DNA of 41,884 nt from Methanosarcinales archaeon (GCA_030610815.1 JAUWRA010000002.1:1-41884), one strand, 5' to 3'. Shown: positions 1 through 24,067, counted from the first letter of the stretch. Notes: generated from the sequence alone by a model not told the origin. Numbers and translations are program-made.

Positions 1-3000
1 CGCCTGAGGTATCGCTCGTATAATACTTCAGCAGATCATACCGCTCGTCTGTCCCGTGATTGTCATGACACGCCTTACATGCAAGTTTCCCATCCTCGAG
101 CGGGTGATGGGTCTTCTGGCTGAACTCGGTCTCCTGCTGAAGCCGCGGCTGTGTCGCACTCGCGCTGTGGCACTCCAGACTGCCGGTACTGCCGGTGTAG
201 CATAATTGCGGACTTGGATAGTACAGCAGATCCTTCCCGCTCTCAGTACCGTGCGGAATGTCAATGGAATCGTTCTCATCATGGCAGTCTATGCACCGCC
301 CAGCTGTGTACGGATCGGTCATATTCGTTATATTGATTTCATACTTCGTCCAGTGCTTCGTGTTTGTAAACGTAAGTTTATCCACATGACAGTAATAGCA
401 CTTACTGTTCGGGGTGTAGCCTGTGTCTACGAGAATGGTAACGCCTGGTTCTGTGATCGTGGTCGTGACGTTCCGATACGACCTGCCATATATCTCCTGA
501 AGCACATCCCATCGATTGATTGCGGTACAGTTCATCGGTTGGTATGTGGTCTTCCCGCTCACATTCTGTTTGTACTCGATAATCAGAAGCCAGTTATCAC
601 TTGATGTCGGCGGTCCCCAGTAACTGAATGGCTTACCGCTCAGTCTGCCGCCCTGCACCTCCTGCTCTCCATCTTGAGCTCCTGCTGATATTTCGCCATC
701 CCAGCAGAGTGCTCCATTGGCATCACTGAGATCACTGTACCGCACCGTGAGATTGGACCACATCGATTCCTGGTGGTAGTTATCCCAGCAGACCACATCG
801 ATCCTCCACATCAGTGTCAGATTCGATGTATCCTCGTAGCCGACCTTTGTTTTGTCAAAGACGGTATCAAGTGTGTAGAGTCTGGTGTCATTGGTGAGGT
901 AGAATATGTAATTCGCTGCTGTCGATCCATTGTTTGTGAAAGTTGCGCCGTTTGAGTCATTGATCCTGATATCGAACTCTGCCCCGTTGCGTGTAAGATC
1001 GTTCCCGATCATCGTTGTGTTCGTTGAGTACTCCTCAAGGAGGATGCCGATGCTCGTGTAGTTCGTGATAGTGTTTGCGGTGAGGTTGTGATCCCTTGAT
1101 GTGTTGAGGAATATGCCCCGCTCTATGGCATCAATGGTGTTGTTCGTGAGATTGCCCCAGTTTGACTCTAACATATAGATGCCGTCTGTACCCGCTGTGA
1201 TGGTGGTGTCGATTATGTCTGTGTGGTTTGAATTCGTGCAATTCAAGCCTGTGTTGTTTGCGGTGATGCTGCCGCCGTCCCGGATGGTTACGTGGTGGGA
1301 CACAGATAGGCTTATGCCATCGCTGGATGATGAGGTGATCGTGACGTTTGCAAGGGTTGTGTAATGGGCACTGTTCGTGTTTAGTCCGTAATCATCCACA
1401 GACGAGATCGTAGTGTCGGTGATGGTGGTGTGATCGGATGAGCTTATGTCCAGTCCCTTGTCGATTGTGCTTTCGATAGTGCTCCCTGTGATGTTGTTGT
1501 AATGCGAACTCGTTTCGAACCGTGCTCCTTCGCTTGGACTTACCGTATCGAGATCAGTGATGTTGTTGCTGGATGAAGCATATAGCAGGATGCCATTGAA
1601 GTTATTCGATAGGGTGTTGTTGGTCAGAGTGTTACTATTTGAATCCCGCAAAAATATACCATAACCGGATTTTATATTATTTGAAAGTTCGCTGTCTCTT
1701 ATGGTGATGTTAGTACAATTTATAAGCGTGATCTTTCCGACATTGCTCACATTGTATTGCAAGAGGTTCTTCGACTCGATTATGATGTCCTGTTCTTCAT
1801 AGTAATAGCTCACATTTTCGCCGTTTGCTGTGTTGTTGCGCCAGATGTGATTTTTATAATATGAGTACTCGAATTGTAATGCAAGATCACTGTTCCCTGA
1901 TATTGTATTTTCACTTAGATCATTGTTATCCGAATAGAAATAAACTCCATTGCCGCTGTTCGAGAGTATTGTATTGTTTCGTATGGTGTTATCGCCTATA
2001 TGTTCAGTGGTAGAACCTATGCAGATACCGTCGCCACTATTCTCTGATATATTATTGTCTGTGAAGTTATTATTTCCACTTCCTGCTAAATAAATGCCTA
2101 TACTATTGTTGATGACGCTATTGTTGATGATGCGGTTGTCACTGCTTGTACCGTCTGATCGAATACCATTACCAATGTTATCCAGAATTTGACTGTCGTT
2201 TATGAGATTATTGTTCGAATCGGTAAAATATACCCCGTGTTTTACGTTGTTCTCGATAGTACTTCCACTAATTCCACTCAATGAAGATCCCACGATCCGG
2301 ATGCCATCCCCGTTGTGTATCGTGCAGCCCGTGAACCACAGATCGTTGCAATTGGCGATTGTTATGTGCCCGATGTTATTGTCGCCGGTAATCATGCCGC
2401 TGTCGCTGTAGTTATAGTATACCAGCCCGCCGTTTACGGTGTTGGTGGTGTCGATATCCTGATCATAGTCTCCTGTGACGTACAGGCTGTAATCCCCATT
2501 GTTGTTGTTCAGACTGTTATTTCGCAGGATATTGTTCTTCGAGGAATCTATGAATATGCCGTTCCCCTGGACGGTGTTTTCGATGGTGCAGTCTGTGATG
2601 TTGACATATCCTGAGGTCGAGGTCAGGTAGATGCCACAGTTCTGATTGTTGCCGATGGTACAGTTATCAATGGTTATATTATTGATGGTCCGGATGTTCA
2701 ACTCATTGCTGTACTCGACGGTGCTGTCGCTCAGATTGCCGTAGCTATCGTCATTGTAGTTGAAATTGTAATAGCCGGAATCGTTTCGGGTGATGGTTGA
2801 ACCACTGGTCACGTTCATGGTTGCGCCGCTCTGGACATTGATGGAAGTTAAGTTTTCCATCCGTATCGTTGCGTTGCTGAGGTGCAGCGCGCCGCTTTCG
2901 ACATCAATTTTGACGGATATAACGCTCTCGTTGTTGCTCAGATTCGTACTCCATTCCGCATAGTTCGCATCAGTAACAATGATCGTGCCATAATCCACAG

Positions 3001-3121
3001 CCTCTGCCACCCCGCACATCATCAAAAATAGCACAACCAAGCACGTGCAGGCAGCAAGTAAAGACATAGCTCGAATAGGGTGACTAGTATATGTACGTCC
3101 AGTGGATACAGCGGGGATCAT
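1..3121 (-). CDS. Secreted right-handed parallel beta-helix (NosD/CASH-like) protein fused to a multiheme cytochrome c region; 3' partial
   Basis: Manual translation shows an open frame from ATG 3121 (alternative ATG 3067) to the window edge. Signal peptide ...SLLAACTCLVVLFLMMCGVAEA|VDYG. Many N-x-I-x-x-N...GI-x-L beta-helix repeats. Heme motifs CYYCH (386-400), CIDCH (281-295), CX9CH (167-202), CKACH (65-79). Missing from the ORF track because there is no stop in the window. Confidence 0.9.
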   Translation of the reverse strand, partial: MIPAVSTGRTYTSHPIRAMSLLAACTCLVVLFLMMCGVAEAVDYGTIIVTDANYAEWSTNLSNNESVISVKIDVESGALHLSNATIRMENLTSINVQSGATMNVTSGSTITRNDSGYYNFNYNDDSYGNLSDSTVEYSNELNIRTINNITIDNCTIGNNQNCGIYLTSTSGYVNITDCTIENTVQGNGIFIDSSKNNILRNNSLNNNNGDYSLYVTGDYDQDIDTTNTVNGGLVYYNYSDSGMITGDNNIGHITIANCNDLWFTGCTIHNGDGIRIVGSSLSGISGSTIENNVKHGVYFTDSNNNLINDSQILDNIGNGIRSDGTSSDNRIINNSVINNSIGIYLAGSGNNNFTDNNISENSGDGICIGSTTEHIGDNTIRNNTILSNSGNGVYFYSDNNDLSENTISGNSDLALQFEYSYYKNHIWRNNTANGENVSYYYEEQDIIIESKNLLQYNVSNVGKITLINCTNITIRDSELSNNIKSGYGIFLRDSNSNTLTNNTLSNNFNGILLYASSSNNITDLDTVSPSEGARFETSSHYNNITGSTIESTIDKGLDISSSDHTTITDTTISSVDDYGLNTNSAHYTTLANVTITSSSSDGISLSVSHHVTIRDGGSITANNTGLNCTNSNHTDIIDTTITAGTDGIYMLESNWGNLTNNTIDAIERGIFLNTSRDHNLTANTITNYTSIGILLEEYSTNTTMIGNDLTRNGAEFDIRINDSNGATFTNNGSTAANYIFYLTNDTRLYTLDTVFDKTKVGYEDTSNLTLMWRIDVVCWDNYHQESMWSNLTVRYSDLSDANGALCWDGEISAGAQDGEQEVQGGRLSGKPFSYWGPPTSSDNWLLIIEYKQNVSGKTTYQPMNCTAINRWDVLQEIYGRSYRNVTTTITEPGVTILVDTGYTPNSKCYYCHVDKLTFTNTKHWTKYEINITNMTDPYTAGRCIDCHDENDSIDIPHGTESGKDLLYYPSPQLCYTGSTGSLECHSASATQPRLQQETEFSQKTHHPLEDGKLACKACHDNHGTDERYDLLKYYTSDTSG

Positions 3122-3294
3122 AATGTTTATCTATTTATTTCATGGGGGGCAACTATTTTATCCTTGATGGAAAAATATCTTAAATTGCCAGATTGTATAA
3201 TTCAAATTTTCAAACCAATTTTTTTAATGGATAGTAAATTATAAACACATTTCGATATAGATATCGGTAATTTTCTTAGTTTCAATCATATCTT

Positions 3295-3592: not shown

Positions 3593-4096
3593 ATGAAAGA
3601 TAAAACTTACATTACAATAATTGCACTATCAGGCATTCTACTTATTGTAGGTGTTGTATACCTGACACTAACTACAGATATTTTCGCATCACAAAATGAC
3701 ACTGATGTAGAAGAAATTATTATACCGGAATTCGAACCAATTCCAGAACAAACAATTGACTGTGAAATGTGTCATGCTCATCCGGAAAAAGAAAAGAAAC
3801 ATATAGATGGCGGCATCTATTGTGAACCATGTCATGGAACAGATCTCCACGACCTGCACATCAAAGAAACTACAGCTAATCTCTCATGCATTGTCTGTCA
3901 TGGTCTAGAACCGATCATCCCGGAAAAACTACCAGGGCATGATAAGATCTGCGATGCATGTCACGACTACCCTGACGCGATCCAGCCAAGCTATGGAAAT
4001 ATTATAACAATACATATGACCAGAGGATACTCCTGCACTATCTGCCATATACAGGATATTCAGAGTATCCATACAAATTCCATGAACAGCAGTTAA
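3593..4096 (+). CDS. Membrane-anchored pentaheme cytochrome c
   Basis: N-terminal TM helix; CEMCH, CEPCH, CIVCH, CDACH, CTICH; extra His residues as likely distal ligands. Confidence 0.9.
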   Translation: MKDKTYITIIALSGILLIVGVVYLTLTTDIFASQNDTDVEEIIIPEFEPIPEQTIDCEMCHAHPEKEKKHIDGGIYCEPCHGTDLHDLHIKETTANLSCIVCHGLEPIIPEKLPGHDKICDACHDYPDAIQPSYGNIITIHMTRGYSCTICHIQDIQSIHTNSMNSS

Positions 4097-4197
4097 GGTG
4101 GCATCTATTGATAAATCCTCAGTAAGAAAATCGAAAACCCAATAAATCTAGTGGATTGAATGATCCACTTAAATACAAATTTACAAAAGGTTTAATT

Positions 4198-4677
4198 ATG
4201 ACTTCGGAACTCACATCTGAACAGGGGTGTATGACACTGATTGCAGGATTGCTTGATACACTCAGGGAAATAAATGGCGATGAAGTTACAGGTGATTTAA
4301 TTTATATGAATTTTTTTCGAAGAGGGGAAAATTTCGGGGAAAAAATCGGAACAGGCAAAGATCCCCAAACTGCTCTGAAACAATTCATTGAATATATCAA
4401 GTTTTGTTTTGATATAGAAATTATAAGTGAAAACTCAAAAGAAAAAGAATATACAGCAGACATACGGTTTAAAAACTGTTTGATAAAAGATCTGTGCAGT
4501 AACCAAGGATCATCCATAAAAAACCCTCTTTGCAGAAGTACTCAAGGTTTAATAGAAGGAGCACTTTCCTTTATGACTGGCAAGCAAGTAGAATTGGACA
4601 TATCTATTATGGAAAGGGATATTTGTCAGGGTACTATACGATTCAAGAAAAAACGTGATATATTTCATTTCATATAA
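4198..4677 (+). CDS. V4R / methanogen output-domain-like protein
   Basis: F-x-x-G-x-x-x-G helix, then Cys pattern C-LIKDL-C...PL-C-x-x-x-x-GLIEG...C typical of V4R. ATG 4198 preferred over TTG 4156. Confidence 0.65.
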   Translation: MTSELTSEQGCMTLIAGLLDTLREINGDEVTGDLIYMNFFRRGENFGEKIGTGKDPQTALKQFIEYIKFCFDIEIISENSKEKEYTADIRFKNCLIKDLCSNQGSSIKNPLCRSTQGLIEGALSFMTGKQVELDISIMERDICQGTIRFKKKRDIFHFI

Positions 4678-13804: not shown

Positions 13805-14203
13805 ATGGAGGAAATTATTGATAATTTTATACCTGTAGCTATTTTCATTCTATTTGGTTTAGTAATACCCTTGGCAATAATGTTTATTGTAAAGCAGATA
13901 TCGCCGAGGAGCAAGACGCTAGCTAAGTTCACAACCTATGAAAGTGGTTCTGTGCCCACCGGTAGTGCGAACATGATGTTCAATGTCGAATATTACGCAT
14001 ATGCAATACTTTTTGTATTGTTTGATGTTGAATTGTTGTTCCTTTATCCATGGGTTACTGTTTATGTGAATGAAGCTGTGATTACATCTACACCAGGTTT
14101 TACTACAGGATTTAGCATTTTAGCGATGGTATTGTTTATGATTGTTGTACTATTAGGACTTATATATGAATGGAAGAAGGGGGTCTTGGAATGGGTGAGA
14201 TAA
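13805..14203 (+). CDS. fpoA: F420H2:phenazine oxidoreductase subunit A
   Basis: YESG, FNVEYY-x-x-AILFVLFDVE, YEWKKGVLEW. Confidence 0.95.
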   Translation: MEEIIDNFIPVAIFILFGLVIPLAIMFIVKQISPRSKTLAKFTTYESGSVPTGSANMMFNVEYYAYAILFVLFDVELLFLYPWVTVYVNEAVITSTPGFTTGFSILAMVLFMIVVLLGLIYEWKKGVLEWVR

Positions 14204-14733
14204 AGACAGAGCTTCCACCGAATGTGGTGGTCACTACTAACAGTGCAATAAATGAGTTCATTAAAAATTCACCGCTCCAGAAAATTGTAAACTGGGGTAG
14301 AAAGAACTCGTTATGGTTTATGACCCATCCAATGGGTTGCTGCGGAATTGAACAAATATGCGTAGGTGTAGCCCATTATGATACAGATAGGTTTGGTATC
14401 ATCCCGAGGTGTTCCCCGAGACAGGCTGATGTAATGATGATCAGTGGTTATGTTAGCAAGAAATATCTACCTGCTCTAAAAAGGGTATGGGACCAGATGT
14501 TAGAACCTAGGTGGATATTGATGATGGGTGAGTGTGCAATCTCCGGTGGTCCCTGGTGGGAATCATATAGTACAGTCACGCATCTTGATGAAATATTCCC
14601 TGTGGATATTTATATTCCCGGTTGTCCGCCAAGACCCGAAGCCCTTTTGCAGGGATTCATTGAACTTCAGAAAAAGATCGTGGCTGAGCAAGACAGGACT
14701 GTAATACCAAATCCAGGAGAAGGTGGTGAGTAA
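14191..14733 (+). CDS. fpoB: Fpo subunit B
   Basis: GCCGIE, SPRQAD, GECAISGG, YIPGCPPRPEA. Confidence 0.95.
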   Translation: MGEIKTELPPNVVVTTNSAINEFIKNSPLQKIVNWGRKNSLWFMTHPMGCCGIEQICVGVAHYDTDRFGIIPRCSPRQADVMMISGYVSKKYLPALKRVWDQMLEPRWILMMGECAISGGPWWESYSTVTHLDEIFPVDIYIPGCPPRPEALLQGFIELQKKIVAEQDRTVIPNPGEGGE

Positions 14734-14736
14734 AAT

Positions 14737-15204
14737 ATGGGAGATGAAAAGATCGATAAAACCATCATGATTGAACTGTCAAATACGTTCAAGGATGCAG
14801 TTTCTGATGTGGATGTCCCCTCACCTAACAGGGCGGTAGCAAGAATAGATCCAGGTAAAGTAAAAGAGATCATGCAGTTTTTACTTGACAACGGTTTCGA
14901 CCATCTTTCCTGTATATCAGGTGTGGATTATCCTCCTGATAAGATAGAGGTGGTATATCATGTCACATCATATTCGGCACCGTTGGTCATAACATTAAAA
15001 GCTTCAGTACCAAGAGATGATCCGAAAATAGATTCACTATGTGGTATCTACTGGAATGCAAACTGGTATGAACGGGAAACGTATGAACTTTATGGGATCA
15101 AATTTACTGATTGTCCGTATATGAAGGTCCTATTGCTGATAGACGAAATGGAAGGAGAATGGCCACTGCGTAAAGATTACGCTGGGTATCCCGATCTAAC
15201 ATAG
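14737..15204 (+). CDS. fpoC: Fpo subunit C
   Basis: FDHLSCISGVDY, ANWYERETYELYGI-x-F, PLRKDY. Confidence 0.95.
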   Translation: MGDEKIDKTIMIELSNTFKDAVSDVDVPSPNRAVARIDPGKVKEIMQFLLDNGFDHLSCISGVDYPPDKIEVVYHVTSYSAPLVITLKASVPRDDPKIDSLCGIYWNANWYERETYELYGIKFTDCPYMKVLLLIDEMEGEWPLRKDYAGYPDLT

Positions 15205-15214
15205 GTGATGAACA

Positions 15215-16345
15215 ATGACACATGAAGCAACTCAAATCACTTCCCCACCCAAACCATCTGAGATACTCCTGCATCTCGGACCACAGCATCCGCTGCAGCC
15301 TGGTCCTTTTTTGCTTGATCTGAAGATAGAGGGTGAAACAATAAGGGAAGCCGAACTCAAGATAGGTTATATTCATAAAGGTATGGAAAAGGTGTTTGAA
15401 GACAGGACATATCTCCAGATCCTTCCGCTGACAGACAGGATATGTTATCTTGCCTCTAATTCCAACAACGATGTCTACTGCCGTGGTGTTGAGGAACTGT
15501 TGGGCATAGAACCTACAGACCGTGCCATGTATCTTAGGGTAATAACCAATGAGCTTTGCAGATTACAGAGCCATCTGTTAGGAATAGGTGAATTTACCAC
15601 AGATGTAGGCTTTTTGACCATGTTCATCTATATGGTCAGGGAGCGAGAAGGGGTTGTATCCCTGCTGGAAGCTATTACAGGTTCAAGACTGAACCACAAT
15701 TATGCAAGGTTTGGCGGGGTAGCGAACGACCTGCCGCCAGGCTATAAGGAGATGGCATTAAAAACCCTGGGAGAACTGAAGAAACAGGTCAAATCCCATG
15801 ATGCGATGCTGTCCAGTGATTCGATCTACCTCAGAAGGACTAAAGGTGTAGGAGTATTAACTGCTAAAGAAGCCGGCGAACTTGGAGTGGCAGGACCGCC
15901 TTTAAGGGCCGCAGGCGTGGAGTATGACCTAAGGCGTATGGAACCTTATCTGGTATATGATGATCTTGATTTTAAGGTAATCACCCAGACTGATGGTGAT
16001 GTATTTGCACGGGTCAAAGTAAGATTACTGGAGATGCTTGAGAGTATCTATATTATTGAGCAGTGTCTGGACCAGATGCCTTCAGGTCCGTATAAGCAGG
16101 ATGTAACACCATATATCACGCGCCCCAAATCCGGAGAGGTGTATCCCCGTATTGAAGATCCGAGAGGAGAGATGGGAATGTACATAATTTCTGATGGTTC
16201 CGATAAACCATATCGTTTCAGGATCAGGGGTCCTGCTTTTGCTACGGCACAGGCACTTCCGCCATTATTGGTGGGAACATACGTAGCTGATGTGGCAGCC
16301 ATAGCAGCAAGTATGGATTCATGTACCAGTGAGGTAGATCGGTAG
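15215..16345 (+). CDS. fpoD: Fpo subunit D
   Basis: GPQHP, GYIHKGMEK, DRICY, PRGE, C-terminal EVDR; no Ni-binding CxxC pairs. Confidence 0.95.
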   Translation: MTHEATQITSPPKPSEILLHLGPQHPLQPGPFLLDLKIEGETIREAELKIGYIHKGMEKVFEDRTYLQILPLTDRICYLASNSNNDVYCRGVEELLGIEPTDRAMYLRVITNELCRLQSHLLGIGEFTTDVGFLTMFIYMVREREGVVSLLEAITGSRLNHNYARFGGVANDLPPGYKEMALKTLGELKKQVKSHDAMLSSDSIYLRRTKGVGVLTAKEAGELGVAGPPLRAAGVEYDLRRMEPYLVYDDLDFKVITQTDGDVFARVKVRLLEMLESIYIIEQCLDQMPSGPYKQDVTPYITRPKSGEVYPRIEDPRGEMGMYIISDGSDKPYRFRIRGPAFATAQALPPLLVGTYVADVAAIAASMDSCTSEVDR

Positions 16346-16358
16346 GGAGGTGTAATTT

Positions 16359-17420
16359 ATGGGAATTGTAGAAATATATGAAATTATTATGGATACTCTT
16401 GTTTTTATTTTTGCAACCAATCCATTTTCGCCCTGGATCAGGGGTGTTCTTGGCGGGCTTGTGATAGGAGCTGTGTTCGGCGGAGCTCTTGTAATGGTAT
16501 ATCTTGAGCGTAAGTTCCTGGGAGATATGCAATCCAGGATTGGTCCTAATCGGGTAGGCGGTCGATTTGGTGTATTGCAGTTGATAGCAGATGCTATCAA
16601 ACTATTCACTAAAGAAGATATTATACCTGCCAAGGCCGATAAATGGTTATTTATAGGTGCACCGATTGTTGCACTCACGTCAGGTTTTTTGATGGTGGCA
16701 GTAATCCCCTTTGATCTCCTAATAATCAAAGGGAACGAATATGCAGTAGCAGTATCCCGAATGGATATCAGTATCCTGTATATTGAAGCTGTATCCGGGT
16801 TGGCCATCTTTGCTACATTTATGGCAGGATGGGGTTCAAGCAGTAAATATGCAGTGCTTGCTGCGTTCAGGAACGTAGCAAAGATGATCGGTTACGAAAT
16901 TCCAATGGGTATTTCTATTCTTAGTGTGGCAGTAATGGCGTATTCACTGGATATCGTTGAAATAGTGGAAGCCCAGTCAAGTATATGGTTCATTATTGCA
17001 CAGCCGTTGGGTTTTGTAATATTCTTCATAGCCTTGTTGGCTGATGTGGGACGAATACCCTTTGACCAAACTGAAGCAGAAGAAGAACTCGTCGCAGGAT
17101 GGGCTACGGAATACAGCGGGATGAGATGGGGGCTGGCATTCTTTGCTGAATATCTCCATGCAGTTGTGGGCTCCTTCATTGTTACCCTGATATTCCTGGG
17201 TGGATGGAATGGTCTCCCGTTTGTTGGCAATCTATACATTCCAGGAATCTTCTGGGTGATTGCCAAGACAATAATAGTGATGATGCTTTTCATATGGATC
17301 AGAGCTGCCCTGCCAAGATACAGGATCGACCAAGTCATCGATATAGGTTGGAAGGTATTAATTCCACTTGCTTTGCTGAACCTTGTATGGTCAACTATCA
17401 TAGGATTAATGTGGGCCTAG
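16359..17420 (+). CDS. fpoH: Fpo subunit H
   Basis: ERK...Q-x-RIGPNRVG, ADAIKL-x-x-KED, RIPFD-x-x-EAEEELVAGW-x-TEYSG, PRYRIDQ. Confidence 0.95.
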   Translation: MGIVEIYEIIMDTLVFIFATNPFSPWIRGVLGGLVIGAVFGGALVMVYLERKFLGDMQSRIGPNRVGGRFGVLQLIADAIKLFTKEDIIPAKADKWLFIGAPIVALTSGFLMVAVIPFDLLIIKGNEYAVAVSRMDISILYIEAVSGLAIFATFMAGWGSSSKYAVLAAFRNVAKMIGYEIPMGISILSVAVMAYSLDIVEIVEAQSSIWFIIAQPLGFVIFFIALLADVGRIPFDQTEAEEELVAGWATEYSGMRWGLAFFAEYLHAVVGSFIVTLIFLGGWNGLPFVGNLYIPGIFWVIAKTIIVMMLFIWIRAALPRYRIDQVIDIGWKVLIPLALLNLVWSTIIGLMWA

Positions 17421-17432
17421 GAGGGGAAAAAG

Positions 17433-17828
17433 ATGGTATTAAAAAATTTACAAATAACTCTTCGCACTGTATATACAAAATCTGTAACGAGACTATATCC
17501 GGAAGAAATTATGGAACTGCCTGATGCATTCAGGGGGCAGCAACATTTGGATATGGATAAATGTGTAGGATGCGGTATATGTTCCCAGATGTGTCCCAAT
17601 GATGTTATTGAGATAGTTAAAAGCGGAAAATGGTATCCACAATTTGATAACGGGCATTGTATGTTCTGCGGACTATGTGTTGATTTTTGTCCGAATGGGG
17701 CATTGTCTATGACAAAACATTTTGAGATGGCTTGTTGGACCAAGGAAGAAACAATCTACAGCCCTGACCAGCTTGCAGCTCCGAATAAAGCCGAACTTGA
17801 AGGCAGGACAGGGGGGTATACGAAATGA
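17433..17828 (+). CDS. fpoI: Fpo subunit I (2x[4Fe-4S])
   Basis: CVGCGICSQMCP and CMFCGLCVDFCP. Confidence 0.95.
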   Translation: MVLKNLQITLRTVYTKSVTRLYPEEIMELPDAFRGQQHLDMDKCVGCGICSQMCPNDVIEIVKSGKWYPQFDNGHCMFCGLCVDFCPNGALSMTKHFEMACWTKEETIYSPDQLAAPNKAELEGRTGGYTK

Positions 17829-18082
17829 TAGACCTACAGATCATACCATTTGCAATTATATCAATAATCATGATCGGTTCATCCATCATGGTGGTAAAAT
17901 CAAAGGAAGTAGTACACAGTGCTTTCCATTGTGTTATAACTATGATGGCTGCTGCCGGATTTTATGTGTTGCTTAGTGCGCAGTTCATAGCTGTAGTGCA
18001 GATACTGGTGTATGTAGGAGCCATTGGTGTGATGATACTCTTTGCAGTAATGCTTACTACGAGAAACCAGGAGGTGGAGTGA
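17825..18082 (+). CDS. fpoJ1: Fpo subunit J1 (N-terminal half of NuoJ)
   Basis: LL-x-AQFIAVVQILVYVGAI; operon position. Confidence 0.9.
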   Translation: MIDLQIIPFAIISIIMIGSSIMVVKSKEVVHSAFHCVITMMAAAGFYVLLSAQFIAVVQILVYVGAIGVMILFAVMLTTRNQEVE

Positions 18083-18390
18083 TTATGGAACAATTACCAA
18101 GTAAAAGTTGGAATATAATTAACCTGGTGACTGCGCTTATGTTGATGGCAGTATTAGTATTTGCGATTGTTAGTGTTGTCGGATTAGGGCCTTTAGTGCC
18201 AAGCACTCTGCCAGAAAGTGTACCTATTGATTATACAGTCTGGGAAGACGGGTCAAGGGATGCAAGTGGGATTGAACATGTAGGAGGACTGTTGTTCACC
18301 AAATATGTAATCCCGTTTGAGGTCCTTGCACTGGTCCTGTTAGCGGCACTCTTAGGGAGTCTTTACATGGCCAAGAAGGAGGATGAGTAA
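18079..18390 (+). CDS. fpoJ2: Fpo subunit J2 (C-terminal half of NuoJ)
   Basis: LFTKYVIPFEVLALVLLAAL; ATG 18085 is an alternative start. Confidence 0.9.
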   Translation: MIMEQLPSKSWNIINLVTALMLMAVLVFAIVSVVGLGPLVPSTLPESVPIDYTVWEDGSRDASGIEHVGGLLFTKYVIPFEVLALVLLAALLGSLYMAKKEDE

Positions 18391-18692
18391 TGTTACCGGT
18401 CAGTTATTATCTAATTGTTGCAGCCATTGTGTTCTGCATTGGTGTTTATGGTGTGATGACATTAAGGTCAGGAATTATGATCATGATGTGTATAGAACTG
18501 ATGCTTAATGCAGCTAACATCAACCTGATAGCCTTTGCATCACATTTCAGCCAGGTGAACGGTCATGTTTTTGTACTGTTCAGCATTGCTTTGGCAGCGG
18601 CTGAAGCAGCTATTGGTTTTGCAATATTAATGAGTATATTCAGGTCTAAGAACAATGTCAATATCGACAATATCAACATCCTGAGGTGGTAA
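18390..18692 (+). CDS. fpoK: Fpo subunit K
   Basis: IELMLNAANINL, AAAEAAIG. Confidence 0.95.
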   Translation: MLPVSYYLIVAAIVFCIGVYGVMTLRSGIMIMMCIELMLNAANINLIAFASHFSQVNGHVFVLFSIALAAAEAAIGFAILMSIFRSKNNVNIDNINILRW

Positions 18693-18695
18693 GAT

Positions 18696-20741
18696 ATGGC
18701 TGTTGATAATATAGTATATTTGATACCGGCACTTCCGGTGTTAGCATTCGTACTTACCCTTGCTTTTGGCAAGAAACTTCCCTCAGGTGGAGGATATATA
18801 CCGATACTGGCAATCGCCATATCCTGTATTATATCTGTAATGGCATTTTTACAGATATATAACACGGGTATACCCATTGAGGTATCTGCTCATTGGTTTT
18901 CAGTATTGAACGTTGGTATTTTGATCGATCCTCTGGCAAGTGTAATGTTGATGATGGTCACTTTTGTGAGTTTGCTCATCCACATCTATGCTATAGGTTA
19001 TATGGCACACGACCCAGGCAAACCCAGATATTTCGCAGAGACCGCATTGTTCACTGCTGCTATGCTGGGTGTGGTGCTGGCAGATAACATCCTCCAGTTC
19101 TTCATTGCTTGGGAACTGGTAGGTCTGTGTTCATATCTGCTGATCGGGTTCTGGTTCAGGAAACCTACAGCTGCAGCCGCAGCTAAGAAGGCTTTCCTCA
19201 CAACCCGTGTAGGTGATGTGCTGTTCTTAGCTGGTATAGTAATATTATATTCCAGTATGAGAGATGTTTTTTTGGAGCGCTTTCCAGCTGGTATACCCGA
19301 CGGGACCTATTTACTTCAATTCAGTACGATCTTCGATAATATATCACATATAGATCCTACTAACCTTACTATTATTACACTGCTCTTCTTTGGCGGTGCG
19401 GTAGGTAAGAGCGGGCAGTTCCCGCTGCATGTATGGTTGCCTGATGCAATGGAAGGTCCCACTACGGTTTCGGCCTTGATCCATGCAGCTACAATGGTAA
19501 CTGCTGGTGTGTATTTAGTTGCCAGGACGTTCCCGATGTTTATTGCATCTCCTGCGGTTGAATTAGCGGGAATTACAATTCCTGCAACACTTACTGTTGT
19601 AGCTTATATAGGCGGTTTTACAGCACTGTTCGCATCTACCATGGGACTGGTAATGAACGATATCAAACGTGTACTTGCCTTTTCTACGATCAGCCAGCTT
19701 GGATATATGATGCTGGCACTTGGAATGGGATCGGTAATAGGTGTTGCTGCAGTAGGTTTTGCCATGTTCCACCTGATCAATCATGCATTCTTCAAAGCAT
19801 GTCTGTTCTTGTGTGCAGGTAGTGTCATTCATTCGACTGGTACAAATGATCTGCGTGAAATGGGTGGTCTGATGAGTAAGATGAAGATCACAGGGATCAC
19901 CATGTTATTTTCTTCACTGGCACTTGCCGGTATTGGTATACCATTTTTGAAAATTATTGGTACGCCTATTGGTACCAGCGGCTTTGTCAGTAAGGATGCG
20001 ATCATTTTGGAAGGTTCATATGTATTTGCTAATGTGACACATGACTGGATCCCATTTGCCTTTGGTGTATTAGCGGCATTATTGACAGCAATATATACAT
20101 TCAGGCTGTGGTTTATGGCATTCACAGGGAAACCCCGCCAGGAAAGACATCCTCATGAGTCGCCAGCAACTATGACAGGAGTTTTATCAATTCTTGCTGT
20201 GTTTGCATTGGTATTTGGAATGCTCACCTTCATTCCGTTCAATATTTTCGTCGGTCATACATATGATCACCATGAGATTGAAGAACTTGCTGGATTAGCT
20301 GGAAATCATGTTATAGGTCATGATGAAATTCTTGATATCGCCCATCATGCTTCCCCAATAATAACCCTATTACCGGTTATCGTTGGTGTAGGTGGACTAC
20401 TGTTAGCATGGGTAATCTATAACAGGCGTTGGATAAGTGTGGCATCGATCGGGAATATGCGAAATCCGTTATTCAAGATTCTTGCCAAGCGGTACTACCA
20501 GCATGAAATATTCATTGAACTGATATCCCTGAAGTTCACTTATGGAGTACTTGCCCTGGCCGGTGAGTTCAGTGACCGTAAGATAGTTGATGGTATCATT
20601 GACGGCATAAGTTCATTTATCATAGGAGGAGCAGAAGTCTTGAAAAAGATTCAAACAGGTGTGGTGCAGAATTATGCCACAGCAACGGTTTTAGGGGTGG
20701 GCTTGATAGCCCTTATCCTTTCATTAAGGTGGGTGATCTAA
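18696..20741 (+). CDS. fpoL: Fpo subunit L
   Basis: WELVGLCSYLLIGFW, GKSGQFPLHVWLPDAMEGPTTVSALIHAATMV, HAFFKA. Confidence 0.95.
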   Translation: MAVDNIVYLIPALPVLAFVLTLAFGKKLPSGGGYIPILAIAISCIISVMAFLQIYNTGIPIEVSAHWFSVLNVGILIDPLASVMLMMVTFVSLLIHIYAIGYMAHDPGKPRYFAETALFTAAMLGVVLADNILQFFIAWELVGLCSYLLIGFWFRKPTAAAAAKKAFLTTRVGDVLFLAGIVILYSSMRDVFLERFPAGIPDGTYLLQFSTIFDNISHIDPTNLTIITLLFFGGAVGKSGQFPLHVWLPDAMEGPTTVSALIHAATMVTAGVYLVARTFPMFIASPAVELAGITIPATLTVVAYIGGFTALFASTMGLVMNDIKRVLAFSTISQLGYMMLALGMGSVIGVAAVGFAMFHLINHAFFKACLFLCAGSVIHSTGTNDLREMGGLMSKMKITGITMLFSSLALAGIGIPFLKIIGTPIGTSGFVSKDAIILEGSYVFANVTHDWIPFAFGVLAALLTAIYTFRLWFMAFTGKPRQERHPHESPATMTGVLSILAVFALVFGMLTFIPFNIFVGHTYDHHEIEELAGLAGNHVIGHDEILDIAHHASPIITLLPVIVGVGGLLLAWVIYNRRWISVASIGNMRNPLFKILAKRYYQHEIFIELISLKFTYGVLALAGEFSDRKIVDGIIDGISSFIIGGAEVLKKIQTGVVQNYATATVLGVGLIALILSLRWVI

Positions 20742-22223
20742 GTGGTGGATTATGTACTTTCGTTAATACTGTTCATCCCACTCATAGGTGCTGCCCTAAC
20801 GCTGTTATTTACCAAGAGCCGTGAATCAGCCAGAATGGTTGCATTTGTCTCATCAGCAATATCATTTGTACTTACAATAATGATATATCTCCAGTTCGAA
20901 CCAGGTATAGCTTTCCTGGGATTCCAGTTCGAGGAAAAAATCGGCTGGATCAGCAGTATGGGAATAAATTACCAACTTGGTGTTGACGGAGTCAGCATGC
21001 CGTTGATTTTATTAAATGCAATACTGTGTCCGTTAACCATTGTTTATGCATGGGGAGAGAGCAAACTGCCCAACCAGTTCTTTGCTTTGATACTGGTGCT
21101 GCAGGCTGGAGTGTTCGGGGTATTCATGTCCCTGGATTTCTTCCTGTTCTACATATTCTGGGAACTGACACTGATACCATTGTACTTCCTGATAAGTATC
21201 TGGGGCGGTCCTAATAAGGACTATGCAGCCATTAAATTCTTTATTTATACTCATGTTGCCAGTCTTGTAATGGTCCTGGGTATATTTGCGCTGTATTTCA
21301 GTACTGGTGTCAATACATTTGAAATACCGGTATTGTTAGAGGCATTTTCTGACATAGTATCTGCTGAGATGAGAGTTGGTATTTTCCTTGCCCTGTTCTT
21401 TGGGTTTTTGGTGAAGATGCCTACTGTTCCATTCCATACCTGGCTGCCAGATGCCCATGTGGAAGCACCCACTGCAGGCAGTGTCCTGCTGGCCGGTGTG
21501 CTGCTTAAGATGGGCGGCTACGGGCTGTTCAGGGTATTGTTACCAATGATGGATAGCCTTGGACCATATCGTTCAAGTATAATCACATTAATGGCGGTGC
21601 TGGCTGTGGTAAGCATATTATATGCTACATTTTTGGCACTGGCACAGAAAGATCTGAAAAAGATGGTCGCTTACAGCAGTGTAGCCCATATGGGTTATGT
21701 GATGCTGGGAGCTGCCGCATTCAACTATATGTCAGTTTCAGGAGCCATGTTCCAGCAATTCAGTCACGGACTGATCACTGCCGTGCTTTTCATGAGCGTA
21801 GGTGTGATACAGCACAGTGTTCATACCAGGATCATACCAGACCTGGGTGGATTGGCTGACCGGATGCCAAAACTGGCCTTCTTGATGATGTGTGGATTCA
21901 TGGCATCACTGGGACTTCCGGCTATGAGTGGTTTTATTGCTGAGTTTATGGTACTAACAGGAAGTTACCTGACTCTACCAGTATATGCACTGTTGGCAAT
22001 GGTTGGTATTGTAGCTACGGCTGGTTATCACCTGTGGGCAATGCAACGTGCCATGTTTGGCAGTTACAACGAGAAACTTGGTGAACCTCATGACCTGGCT
22101 AACTTCGAAATGATACCCATGGCAATACTGGTGTTGTTGATAATATTGTTTGGAGTATATCCGGGATCAGTGATGGAAATGTTTGAACATGCCAGTAAAA
22201 TCATTCCAGGAGTGATGATATGA
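20742..22223 (+). CDS. fpoM: Fpo subunit M
   Basis: FWELTLIP, PFHTWLPDAHVEAPT, LLKMGGYG, AYSSVAHMG. Confidence 0.95.
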   Translation: MVDYVLSLILFIPLIGAALTLLFTKSRESARMVAFVSSAISFVLTIMIYLQFEPGIAFLGFQFEEKIGWISSMGINYQLGVDGVSMPLILLNAILCPLTIVYAWGESKLPNQFFALILVLQAGVFGVFMSLDFFLFYIFWELTLIPLYFLISIWGGPNKDYAAIKFFIYTHVASLVMVLGIFALYFSTGVNTFEIPVLLEAFSDIVSAEMRVGIFLALFFGFLVKMPTVPFHTWLPDAHVEAPTAGSVLLAGVLLKMGGYGLFRVLLPMMDSLGPYRSSIITLMAVLAVVSILYATFLALAQKDLKKMVAYSSVAHMGYVMLGAAAFNYMSVSGAMFQQFSHGLITAVLFMSVGVIQHSVHTRIIPDLGGLADRMPKLAFLMMCGFMASLGLPAMSGFIAEFMVLTGSYLTLPVYALLAMVGIVATAGYHLWAMQRAMFGSYNEKLGEPHDLANFEMIPMAILVLLIILFGVYPGSVMEMFEHASKIIPGVMI

Positions 22224-23698
22224 ATTATATAGAATTAGCGTCAGAATTCGCTCCGGAATTGATATTGACCATCGGGGCTCTTGCCATTATGATGATCGGT
22301 CTATTTCTGGCAAATTCACAGAAAAAGGTACTGGGATATCTTGCCACAATATTCCTTGCAGTGGCCAGCTTGGTCATTGTGTACAGGGGAATATATGATA
22401 TACAGATGGAAGGCATATTGGCAGATTCCCTGACCATCGACCCCATGAGCCAGTTCTTTAAGCTGACCTTCTTAGTGGTATCCCTGATTGTGGTTATTGC
22501 ATCGATAAAGGAGTATGATGGCCATTCGAATCAAGACGAGTATTATACTCTAATACTACTCGGGACCATCGGAATGATGGTAGTGGCCTCAGCGATAGAT
22601 ATTGTGACTATGTTCATCGGGTTTGAACTGGCCAGTTTATCCACTTATGCACTGGCAGGATTCAATAAGAAGGATCCAAATAGCCTGGAAGCGGCAGTCA
22701 AGTACTTCATCATAGGTGCCCTGTCATCCGCATTGCTGTTGTTCGGTCTTTCATACATATATGGTATGAGCGGTGGCCTTACAAACATCAGTGAACTGGC
22801 TGTTTTCTTTAACAATAATCCCGCGGTCCTCCAGAGTCCAATGGGTATAATAGCTTTAATGCTGATCGTGGCCGGATTCGGATTTAAGATGGCATTAGTA
22901 CCGTTCCATATGTGGGCACCGGATACATATCAAGGTGCACCTACCGTTATATCAGCATTACTGGCAGCAGGGTCCAAGAAGATGGCCTTCGTTGCAGCCT
23001 TCAGGATATTATTGATTGCGATGATAGCCATCAAGATCGATATAGCAATGGTGTTCATGATTCTTGCAATAATTACCATGACCCTTGGGAATGTGGTTGC
23101 CCTTAGCCAAAGGAGTTTAAAGCGTATGCTTGCTTATTCTTCAGTGGCACAGGCAGGATACATTTCCATGGTGTTTGTAGTAATGTCGCCCGAAGCATTG
23201 ACTGGAGGCATACTGTATGTTATGTCTCATGCATTCATGAAGACGGGTGCTTTCATTGCAGTAGCAGCACTGGGATATATGTTGTTGAAGGAGAACAGTA
23301 ATGCAAAGGACGTTGATCATCTGGATAACTTTGCCGGACTAGGTAAAAGGTCTCCATTTTTGGCATTCAGTATTATGATATTCCTGTTTGCCCTGGCTGG
23401 TATTCCATTCACGGCAGGTTTTGTCAGTAAGTTCATACTGTTCTTATCAGTGCTGGAAGGAGGATTTTATCTCCTTGTGATCTTTGCCATATTGAATAGT
23501 GCATTGTCCCTGTATTATTACGCCAGGGTTGTGAAATATATGTATGTACTTCCGCCTTCGTCCGATGAAAAATTGAAAGTACCCGGAACATATGCAGTAG
23601 CTATACTGCTGGCAATTATAGGCGTGCTGGCAATAGGAATTGTTCCTGAACCATTCATCAACTGGGCAGCAAGTGCAGCTAATGTACTGGGACTATAA
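22220..23698 (+). CDS. fpoN: Fpo subunit N
   Basis: EAAVKYF, FKMALVPFHMWAPDTYQGAP, KRMLAYSS. Confidence 0.95.
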   Translation: MNYIELASEFAPELILTIGALAIMMIGLFLANSQKKVLGYLATIFLAVASLVIVYRGIYDIQMEGILADSLTIDPMSQFFKLTFLVVSLIVVIASIKEYDGHSNQDEYYTLILLGTIGMMVVASAIDIVTMFIGFELASLSTYALAGFNKKDPNSLEAAVKYFIIGALSSALLLFGLSYIYGMSGGLTNISELAVFFNNNPAVLQSPMGIIALMLIVAGFGFKMALVPFHMWAPDTYQGAPTVISALLAAGSKKMAFVAAFRILLIAMIAIKIDIAMVFMILAIITMTLGNVVALSQRSLKRMLAYSSVAQAGYISMVFVVMSPEALTGGILYVMSHAFMKTGAFIAVAALGYMLLKENSNAKDVDHLDNFAGLGKRSPFLAFSIMIFLFALAGIPFTAGFVSKFILFLSVLEGGFYLLVIFAILNSALSLYYYARVVKYMYVLPPSSDEKLKVPGTYAVAILLAIIGVLAIGIVPEPFINWAASAANVLGL

Positions 23699-23713
23699 TA
23701 GGAGGTGAAAAAT

Positions 23714-24067
23714 ATGGCAGATTGTGATCTATGCGGGGTAGGAAGACCTACTCTATGTCCTGTGAAACCAGATGTACCGAGATACAGAAACGCCTACCCT
23801 ACAGGGATGTGGATGGCCATTTGCGAGGAATGCACCAACGCCTCCCACGACGCCAATAAAATCCGTACAAAGGCAAAAGGTTCCAAATGCAACCTTTGTG
23901 GAAGAAAGGGTGATCAACTGTATGCTGTGGAAACAAGAGTTCCTGATTTCAGCGAGCCTTATTATAAGGAAAAAGTAGCGGAGATCTGTGAATCATGCCT
24001 GGAAGCCACCGAGAATGCATACAACAAACGGCAGGCAGAACTGGCATCCCATAAAGGCCACCATTGA
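23714..24067 (+). CDS. fpoO: Fpo subunit O
   Basis: MADCDLCG...PTLCP; four CxxC pairs; last gene of operon; GGAGGTGA SD. Confidence 0.9.
   Translation: MADCDLCGVGRPTLCPVKPDVPRYRNAYPTGMWMAICEECTNASHDANKIRTKAKGSKCNLCGRKGDQLYAVETRVPDFSEPYYKEKVAEICESCLEATENAYNKRQAELASHKGHH

Follow-up and report, generated by a model that had tools for sequence, protein, structure and literature searches.

A contig-edge gene of an ANME-2a-like archaeon joins a beta-helix to a multiheme cytochrome and belongs to the described ANME MHC type C family

The closest described relatives of the gene reported here are the large multiheme cytochromes c (MHCs) of anaerobic methanotrophic archaea (ANME). One published account (PMC9012536), in the parts that deal with these proteins, gives them 20 to 80 heme-binding sites, including heme motifs with extra residues between the cysteines, and defines three classes, of which type C (MHC-C) has no S-layer domain and no C-terminal transmembrane (TM) helix. 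There, the pectin-lyase-like N-terminal domain of MHC-C is suggested to recognise the outer cell wall of the partner, and the type B gene (MHC-B) is described as always adjoined by a CcmF paralogue and as having a signal peptidase gene and that of an '8x TMH' protein upstream. A second account (10.1101/2024.05.23.595608, PMC12180501), likewise in its passages on large MHCs, puts MHC-C at ~2400 aa, takes an 'MHC-D' fusion to suggest that both fused proteins act together, and reports lateral transfer of large MHCs in ANME-3. A literature search for other accounts of archaeal beta-helix multiheme proteins returned none beyond the MHC-C papers, besides one Methanosarcina review, and none was found on NosD-type multiheme proteins in Methanoperedens. 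As far as we know, the MHC-C family has been described from genomes only and never characterised biochemically. Here we analyse a stretch of 41,884 nucleotides from a Methanosarcinales archaeon (GCA_030610815.1 JAUWRA010000002.1:1-41884), called the window below, whose first base lies inside an MHC-C gene. The window is the entire contig C216 (G000:C216:1-41884) of a genome, G000, that comprises 220 contigs and 2.37 Mb and is 94.8% complete.

The window gene resembles MHC-C in its dozens of heme motifs, including ones with widened cysteine spacing, within ~2300-2400 aa; in its heme-free N-terminal beta-helix (aa 42-735), with the first CxxCH only at aa 908; in having neither an S-layer domain nor a C-terminal helix; and in its locus, shared, as in Methanocomedenaceae, with MHC-B and cytochrome-maturation genes. 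It is 59-86% identical to full-length proteins of Candidatus (Ca.) Methanogaster, ANME-2 cluster and Methanosarcinales metagenome-assembled genomes (MAGs). The two differ in nothing of kind: this copy is split on two contigs, reads CGCH at one site, is mosaic in sequence, and is nearer to the copies of ANME-2c-type MAGs than to same-genus copies. We conclude with high confidence, as regards both what the gene is and how it is built, that it is an ANME-2a (Ca. Methanocomedens-like) orthologue of ANME MHC type C. It is real, intact-looking and an ordinary member of a described family, not a new kind of protein. The first-pass annotation of this DNA correctly saw the anatomy of an ANME-2 archaeal protein in which a multiheme cytochrome is joined to a secreted beta-helix rich in sequons, and its guess of attachment combined with electron export would be a reasonable one that coincides with the standing published hypothesis. 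The newness that it implied does not hold, since the architecture is that of the published family. Residue numbers (aa) refer to P0001, the translation of window 2..3121 on the minus strand, which has the following features:

2..3121, minus strand: first 1040 codons of the gene for ANME MHC type C, with an ATG start, no stop and an open 3' end; orthologues are 59-84% identical across the piece.
2999..3121, minus strand: leader and Sec-type signal peptide (aa 1-41), with a hydrophobic segment at aa 14-49 and predicted cleavage A39-E40-A41 / V42.
917..2998, minus strand: right-handed parallel beta-helix (aa 42-735) of the pectin-lyase-like/CASH type, from Pfam, NCBIfam, AlphaFold2 and Foldseek.
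422..916, minus strand: conserved Trp-rich junction domain (aa 736-900) between beta-helix and heme region, from conservation, family search and AlphaFold2.
2..421, minus strand: start of the multiheme region (aa 901-1040), from the Paired_CXXCH_1 match.
386..400, minus strand: heme motif 1, CYYCH (C908-H912), invariant in 29 rows.
281..295, minus strand: heme motif 2, CIDCH (C943-H947), conserved across the 29-row alignment.
167..202, minus strand: non-canonical candidate heme motif C974-x9-C984-H985, with C974, C984 and H985 invariant in 29 rows.
65..79, minus strand: heme motif 3, CKACH (C1015-H1019), within the doubled-CXXCH match and conserved across the 29-row alignment.

The frame itself is as first reported: 1040 uninterrupted minus-strand codons, started by ATG and free of stops over window 2..3121, a length whose chance occurrence is negligible ((61/64)^1040). 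It runs past the first base of contig C216 and is reported only when open reading frames (ORFs) with open ends are allowed; a list that needs a stop codon omits it because the contig ends within the gene. Its supposedly hidden status is therefore an artefact of the contig break and not biology, the gene being missed solely because the assembly breaks inside it. A stop or frameshift between positions 400 and 900, which had been named as a check, is absent from the public contigs aligned on 1-3200 (contigs, not raw reads). Indels in related public contigs over 1-3200 come in threes or are compensated nearby, and this consistent keeping of the frame supports the view that selection acts to hold it open.

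Extending the gene leftward, as had also been advised, led to the end of contig C194 of the same genome, with 26 further CxxCH. Using a six-frame scan of G000 for CxxCH-rich frames, we found at the right end of C194 (L016 16372-19998) a 5'-open frame of 1208 aa that carries these motifs in an orientation continuing the window gene. Orthologues span both pieces, among them L002 (81% identical) and L007 (84-86%): P0001 ends at residue 818 of L002 and the C194 piece begins at 910, and the corresponding residues of L007 are 575 and 672. The missing stretch measures 87-96 aa and holds 2 CxxCH in all five of the five spanning orthologues. In two genomes of the same genus, G022 and G052, the locus is in one piece on a single contig: the window's flank genes, as far as the small 5-heme cytochrome, come first, MHC-C (2315 or 2354 aa) follows, and the genes of C194 come last in unchanged order. 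Three complete orthologues have 2316-2338 aa with 32 CxxCH each. Window 2..3121 is the first 45% of one ~2340-codon gene.

A different account would make 2..3121 something other than one functional gene, either an assembly chimera or a pseudogene, with halves from different genes or organisms. The contig does break inside the gene, the gap between C216 and C194 is unclosed, the closest sequences belong to MAGs of another family, and the same-family genome G017 reads the gene as three ORFs. Nevertheless, G022 and G052 show identical gene order on single contigs with the frame uninterrupted, a public DNA contig of 9710 nt with 2 differences over window 1-258 continues past window base 1, and both halves of the gene share their nearest relatives; indels in related contigs also preserve the frame. 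We regard a chimera or pseudogene as extremely improbable and proceed with a single intact gene.

Broken copies occur elsewhere. In G017 (G017:C195, L020), MHC-C is split in three consecutive ORFs of 905, 473 and 628 aa, which could be frameshifts, a decaying gene or assembly errors. In two MAGs of a family that we label f2 (L002/L015 and L007/L011), the MHC-C gene likewise falls on two contigs, with breaks near residues 209-242 and 457-461; their N-terminal pieces are just 69% identical to P0001, against 81-84% for the rest, and the stated coverage of contigs L007 and L011 is very different (212 vs 18).

The first-pass annotation had advised looking for a C-terminal anchor, and the gene has none: its product ends 14 residues after the last CxxCH, and the orthologues examined end 3-14 residues beyond theirs. 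A Kyte-Doolittle scan detects no TM-like segment in the 1208-aa C194 piece; the same scan finds one in MHC-B, at 2086-2122. Likewise, Pfam gives no S-layer PF07752 match in the window or the C194 piece, and the same scan finds that of MHC-B (6.9e-21). Nor can such a domain fit the unassembled stretch, because 87-96 aa is too short for the 259-position model.

The organism was placed by FpoL, which is encoded in the window. Window FpoL is 90-93% identical to that of its own genus and 75-89% to that of its own family; among full-length matches, the figure is 48-51% for family f2 and at least 58% for the order's other families. It is 89% identical to a Ca. Methanocomedens contig and 81% to ANME-2 HR1. 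By this marker, the genome is assigned as ANME-2a-like and not ANME-2c, an ANME-2c assignment being rejected on the 48-51% to f2 against 89% to Ca. Methanocomedens. We infer that f2 is the family holding the Ca. Methanogaster contigs. FpoL genes 92%, 72% and 62% identical to that of the window (L021, L027, L095, L096) also occur on contigs of Anaerolineales, Nanoarchaeia, Methylophilaceae and Flavobacteriales MAGs, which are probably mis-binned archaeal contigs; those of the Methylophilaceae and Flavobacteriales are both 1430 bp long and give the same match.

The history of the MHC-C gene was read against this placement. Flank genes in the window are 82-97% identical to those of same-genus genomes and MHC-C just 75-77% (G022) and 61-65% (G052), whereas the MHC-C copies in two family-f2 MAGs are 81-86% identical to the window's, with FpoL of those genomes at 49-50%. 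In trees of both gene halves, the window MHC-C groups with the f2 copies (SH-aLRT 97-100%). Forcing the own-genus rows together changes the log-likelihood by -259.8 units (p-AU 3.7e-06, a p-value weakened by the group having been named after the tree was seen). Sliding identity changes along the protein: over C-piece residues 301-500, same-genus copies are 58-61% identical and four others 92-98%, and over residues 1101-1200 the order is reversed, with L002 at 63% and G022 at 84%. The gene thus looks like a mosaic, exchanged laterally or recombined between ANME-2 families, and different gene neighbourhoods argue against mis-binning of short f2 contigs as an alternative. As far as the passages on ANME-3 go, such a history would fit the lateral transfer of large MHCs described there (10.1101/2024.05.23.595608, PMC12180501).

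By analogy with phage tailspikes, MHC-C might be a partner-recognition module whose alleles are swapped by recombination between co-resident ANME-2a and ANME-2c, an idea that we hold to be decidedly unlikely. If allele type were to track the sulfate-reducing partner, the beta-helix would become the first candidate specificity determinant of consortia for the anaerobic oxidation of methane, with a candidate binding site made up of its conserved acidic loop (aa 217-232), H252 and D272.

Public sequence data came from four runs, all in the form of contigs, which carry no information on strand, transcript ends or level of expression. Cold-seep metagenome runs contain near-identical DNA pieces (in X2, 5 pieces, all at least 99% alike), and the best-matching run holds 0.41 of the sampled words. 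Two uncovered stretches, in X1 at 1392-1498 (157 other letters in the contig) and in X17 at 1713-2247, are uninformative. RNA-library contigs from two studies cover 29/30 and 24/30 bins at 90-99% likeness, no more than a hint that the MHC-C gene or close relatives are transcribed, since these contigs may come from relatives or from DNA carry-over.

The protein begins with a predicted signal peptide, as had been proposed. The hydrophobic stretch at aa 14-49, which ends in A39-E40-A41, is the sole N-terminal hydrophobic segment of the window piece in the Kyte-Doolittle scan, and A41 and Y44 hardly vary among 29 homologues, in keeping with a predicted cleavage before V42. Orthologue N-termini aligned by eye suggest that the true start may be M19 rather than M1.

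The beta-helix that follows is present as claimed, with a length of ~695 aa by AlphaFold2 and Pfam rather than ~750. Pfam matches Beta_helix (2.9e-52) and NosD (5.7e-45), and NCBIfam matches the parallel beta-helix repeat TIGR03804 (5.5e-20). An AlphaFold2 model of the window piece, built from 29 sequences (mean predicted local distance difference test score, pLDDT, 76; averaged below in 10-residue blocks), shows a regular right-handed beta-helix over aa 42-735, the blocks of aa 41-720 having a pLDDT of 77-97. With 4.8 A for each coil, its ~30 coils would make a rod of an estimated ~14 nm.

The density of N-x-S/T sequons noted earlier is borne out by shuffling. Residues 41-1040 hold 47 sequons against 28.8 +/- 4.4 in shuffles (0/2000 reach 47), the beta-helix alone holds 38 against 27.2 +/- 4.1 (6/2000 reach 38), and the heme half 68 against 19.5 +/- 3.8 (0/2000 reach 68); 11 of the window piece's 47 sequons are retained by 80% or more of the 29 homologues. 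This enrichment in both halves supports an extracellular, probably glycosylated state.

We compared the beta-helix with structures and profiles of known function. The proteins of the CASH type (AlgG, AlgE4, NosD, tailspikes) share the right-handed parallel fold, and differ in that identity is 9-14%, the AlgG DPHD stretch is not conserved and none of them bears heme. Among PDB structures, Foldseek found 55 matches with E <= 0.001, headed by the epimerases AlgE4 (A-module, E 4e-07) and AlgG together with PL6 alginate lyases and phage tailspikes, all at that low identity and with a target-normalised TM-score of at most 0.48, and the family profile matches AlgG (2.7e-09) and NosD (4.2e-06). Searched against PDB sequences, P0001 gave 0 matches at E <= 0.01. 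Across the 29 homologues, the best-conserved spots of the beta-helix are the acidic loop at aa 217-232 and the invariant H252, G271, D272 and G273, of which the loop, H252 and D272 form a candidate ligand site.

These matches, together with the conservation of H252, D272 and the acidic loop in all or nearly all homologues, could be taken to mean that the beta-helix acts as an enzyme: as a polysaccharide lyase, epimerase or hydrolase, it would give the heme wire access to its target by remodelling the consortium's matrix or the capsule of the partner. The structural ranking (AlgE4 A-module, AlgG, PL6 lyases, then depolymerising tailspikes) and the AlgG profile match favour such a role. However, the likeness lies in the generic repeat, and no glycoside hydrolase or lyase family is among the Pfam and NCBIfam matches. 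The profile alignment sets the AlgG DPHD stretch, which we take to be the catalytic motif of AlgG, against unlike, non-conserved positions. We consider an enzymatic role very unlikely, and binding is favoured over catalysis because the DPHD stretch is not conserved in the family profile. Membership in the AlgG/AlgE alginate C5-epimerases was rejected on the same loss. Membership in NosD was rejected as well: TIGR04247 (NosD_copper_fam) scores 61.8 bits, far under its cutoff of 300, with the best stretch at model positions 125-292 of 377, and the Pfam NosD match reflects the shared repeat.

Between the beta-helix and the hemes, the first-pass annotation saw a Trp-rich linker. The region is indeed Trp-rich, with 7 of 12 Trp in aa 772-871, but it is not a loose linker, being among the best-conserved parts of the protein: mean column conservation is 0.757 in this junction domain against 0.681 in the beta-helix, and the blocks of aa 741-800 reach 0.80-0.91. 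AlphaFold2 models aa 736-900 as beta-rich with block pLDDT of 42-66. A search of aa 736-905 against 1.84 billion representative proteins matched 9 clusters, 8 of them at E <= 1e-10. Those 8, judged by length, look like MHC-C-type proteins or fragments, and both beta-helix and cytochrome domains were found in P0078 and P0079 (Pfam) and in P0029 and P0032 (precomputed Pfam lists). The remaining candidate homologue, P0084, was rejected: it consists of cadherin/Big_9 repeats, matches in 7 short stretches (best at query 56-102, E 5.4e-07) and was taken as compositional. The junction domain appears, on these searches, to be confined to the MHC-C family.

The heme region starts at aa 901 and largely follows the earlier description. 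At least four heme motifs had been counted before the contig edge; three of them are CxxCH (C908, C943, C1015), and the fourth, read as 'LC..CH', is a CX9CH. The paired pattern is there, with PHG at 956-958, HHP at 1005-1007 and CKACHDNHG, and Paired_CXXCH_1 is above its cutoff (1.4e-07, 31.5 bits vs 20.6). Cytochrome_C7, c3_2 and MtrC/MtrF_II-IV fall below their Pfam cutoffs on the window piece. All 11 aligned rows keep the CX8-9CH site, nine with a spacing of 9 and two with a spacing of 8. AlphaFold2 gives pLDDT <45 here, which is expected because the region was modelled without hemes. In the family alignment, 36 Cys-His columns are conserved: 32 canonical, one CX8-9CH, two CX3CH and one CX4CH. 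The assembled sequence of G000 shows 29 CxxCH, 3 from the window piece and 26 from C194, and the complete protein would have about 31-32 CxxCH plus 4 non-canonical sites in a heme region of ~1400 aa.

MtrC and OmcA of Shewanella (PF22113) offer a functional parallel. The C194 half matches Mtrc-MtrF_II-IV_dom (5.9e-25, 88.2 bits), and the presumed role, that of a surface-exposed terminal electron donor, is shared. They differ in that the window piece scores 20 bits against a PF22113 cutoff of 30, and in that the archaeal protein has no lipoprotein anchor or porin partner, ~3x the hemes and an added beta-helix. NCBIfam decaheme models also score low on the window piece (TIGR03508, 31.3 vs 192.2 bits; NF041028, 29.1 vs 325 bits). 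With scores below cutoffs, membership in the MtrC/OmcA/DmsE decaheme cytochromes was rejected; the protein would work like that family without being a member.

P0001 has 76 matches with E <= 1e-05 among proteins of 1821-5000 aa, and the best 36 of these 76 carry both beta-helix and cytochrome families in precomputed Pfam lists, 5 of the 36 with an S-layer domain as well. Sources include an ANME-2 cluster archaeon, Ca. Methanogaster, Ca. Argoarchaeum ethanivorans (P0023) and Methanoperedenaceae GB37 (P0037). Of 151 genomes sampled from the order, 23, with G000 among them, match a junction query (aa 708-900); without G000, matches by family are 3/19 (f1), 14/27 (f2), 1/49 (f3), 0/48 (f4), 0/1 (f5) and 4/6 (f6). 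Many sampled MAGs are incomplete, so that the lack of a match in these counts does not amount to absence of the gene.

The fused forms, which include the Methanovorans 'MHC-D' and an 86-heme protein of ANME-2c ERB4, have homologous N-terminal beta-helices, junction domains and heme regions. Five of them (P0021, P0025, P0032, P0034, P0035) are 41-58% identical to P0001 in BLASTP local alignments covering 37-96%. They differ by an added S-layer domain, 45-57 CxxCH and a length of 3099-3983 aa; a TM-like terminal segment is present in 3 of the 5 S-layer forms and in one further long form without an S-layer entry. Five unfused forms that we examined have an N-terminal hydrophobic segment only. Two fused forms rescanned with Pfam have the S-layer domain C-terminal to beta-helix and hemes. 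The beta-helix should be membrane-distal because the S-layer domain and TM segment lie at the opposite end in these natural fusions.

This arrangement bears on what the beta-helix would bind. Instead of recognising a partner, it might tether MHC-C to the cell's own surface (S-layer glycans or MHC-B) or link it into a conductive matrix. Lacking an anchor, MHC-C must be retained by something else; it shares one locus with MHC-B in the genus; ANME surface proteins are sequon-rich, so self-glycans would be available; and relatives occur in the ethane oxidiser Argoarchaeum and in Methanoperedenaceae GB37, which have different partners. Yet the fusions place the beta-helix distal to the cell, and the beta-helix is the less conserved part of the protein, its N-terminal 100 aa being the most variable, as would be expected of a surface facing a variable target. 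We consider such a self-tether unlikely, if plausible enough to be weighed, and continue with a beta-helix that faces outward.

The locus was examined on both contigs. On the window side, MHC-C has this neighbour:

3593..4096, plus strand: small cytochrome of 167 aa with 5 CxxCH and an N-terminal hydrophobic segment, divergent from MHC-C, a conserved neighbour in the genus.

It is 92% (G022) and 89% (G052) identical to its counterparts in the same position. A 173-aa protein at 4156-4677 (+), with no Pfam match and no TM-like segment, sits between this 5-heme cytochrome and a DHODB-type Fe-S/NAD-binding protein and is 88% (G022) and 86% (G052) identical in the same place. Beyond the 5-heme cytochrome, the window holds housekeeping genes and then, at 13805-24067 (+), an Fpo (F420H2 dehydrogenase/complex I-like) operon with the 49-kDa, NADHdh and three Proton_antipo_M subunits.

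On C194, downstream of MHC-C and on the same strand, lie three small cytochromes (137, 255 and 222 aa), besides a further protein of 137 aa; all four have a hydrophobic segment at the N-terminus. The downstream genes also include an S26 signal peptidase (Peptidase_S26), an MHC-B of 2125 aa with 34 CxxCH, an InhA-like_MAM domain, the S-layer domain and a C-terminal hydrophobic segment, and a 730-aa CcmF. Between the signal peptidase and MHC-B is a 358-aa membrane protein (L016 11195-12271 (-)) with no Pfam match and ~7-8 segments by crude hydropathy, which is probably the '8x TMH' ANME-specific protein of Chadwick 2022. MHC-C, MHC-B, signal peptidase, multi-TM protein and CcmF keep the same order on single contigs in G022 and G052. 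The CcmF appears to be the CcmF paralogue of the published locus, and its CcmF2 clade is putative. MHC-B resembles MHC-C as a giant extracellular multiheme cytochrome of the same operon-like cluster, with heme regions 24-28% identical, and differs in carrying an InhA/M6-like N-terminal domain instead of the beta-helix, together with an S-layer domain and, at its C-terminal end, a helix.

Taken with the published family, these features suggest a mechanism. MHC-C would be exported via its Sec signal peptide, matured with the aid of the neighbouring signal peptidase, multi-TM protein and CcmF, and heavily N-glycosylated. It would then lie, without an anchor, as the segment furthest out in the extracellular electron-transfer chain of ANME: its C-terminal heme end would accept electrons from the S-layer-spanning MHC-B, its body would pass them outward, and the distal beta-helix would bind, without cleavage, a glycan of the sulfate-reducing partner or of the intercellular matrix. 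The whole, MHC-C identity together with this outermost electron conduit, is the best explanation that we have, and we hold it with considerable confidence. Taken singly, the extracellular electron-conduit role is somewhat favoured, and binding of a partner glycan specifically is a tentative proposal that may well prove wrong.

Several points weigh against this explanation. The junction of C216 and C194 is one that we infer from orthologues and synteny: about 260-290 nt between them are unassembled, and no exact suffix-prefix overlap >10 nt exists between the C194 tail and the C216 head. At alignment column 1252, within the first ~90 aa of the C194 piece, 8 of 11 rows have CxxCH, whereas G000 and one other row have C-G-C-H, which may be a lost or altered heme site. 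The geometry of the protein is an estimate only, the model being poor (pLDDT 23-66) over the heme region and the junction domain. Nor is the linkage of MHC-C and MHC-B universal, because ANME-2c-type loci do not share these neighbours: in none of 8 (L002, L004, L005, L006, L008, L010, L012, L014) did a neighbour match any of 14 reference proteins at 1e-8, and MHC-C itself alone gave a weak match, to MHC-B. Glycosylation, rigidity, adhesion, electron export, secretion and heme attachment of MHC-C are all predicted properties. Finally, according to PMC9012536, other authors were led to doubt the importance of such proteins.

What this copy adds to the family is a junction domain restricted to it, the loss of the AlgG-type motif, an acidic loop with a His/Asp pair, dense sequons in both halves and a mosaic history. 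The domain limits are suited to expression of the beta-helix (42-735) and of the junction domain (736-900), and to our knowledge no giant ANME cytochrome has been purified or localised so far. Much of the marine methane sink is under the control of direct interspecies electron transfer between ANME, as donors, and sulfate reducers, and giant cytochromes such as MHC-C are the proposed hardware of this transfer.

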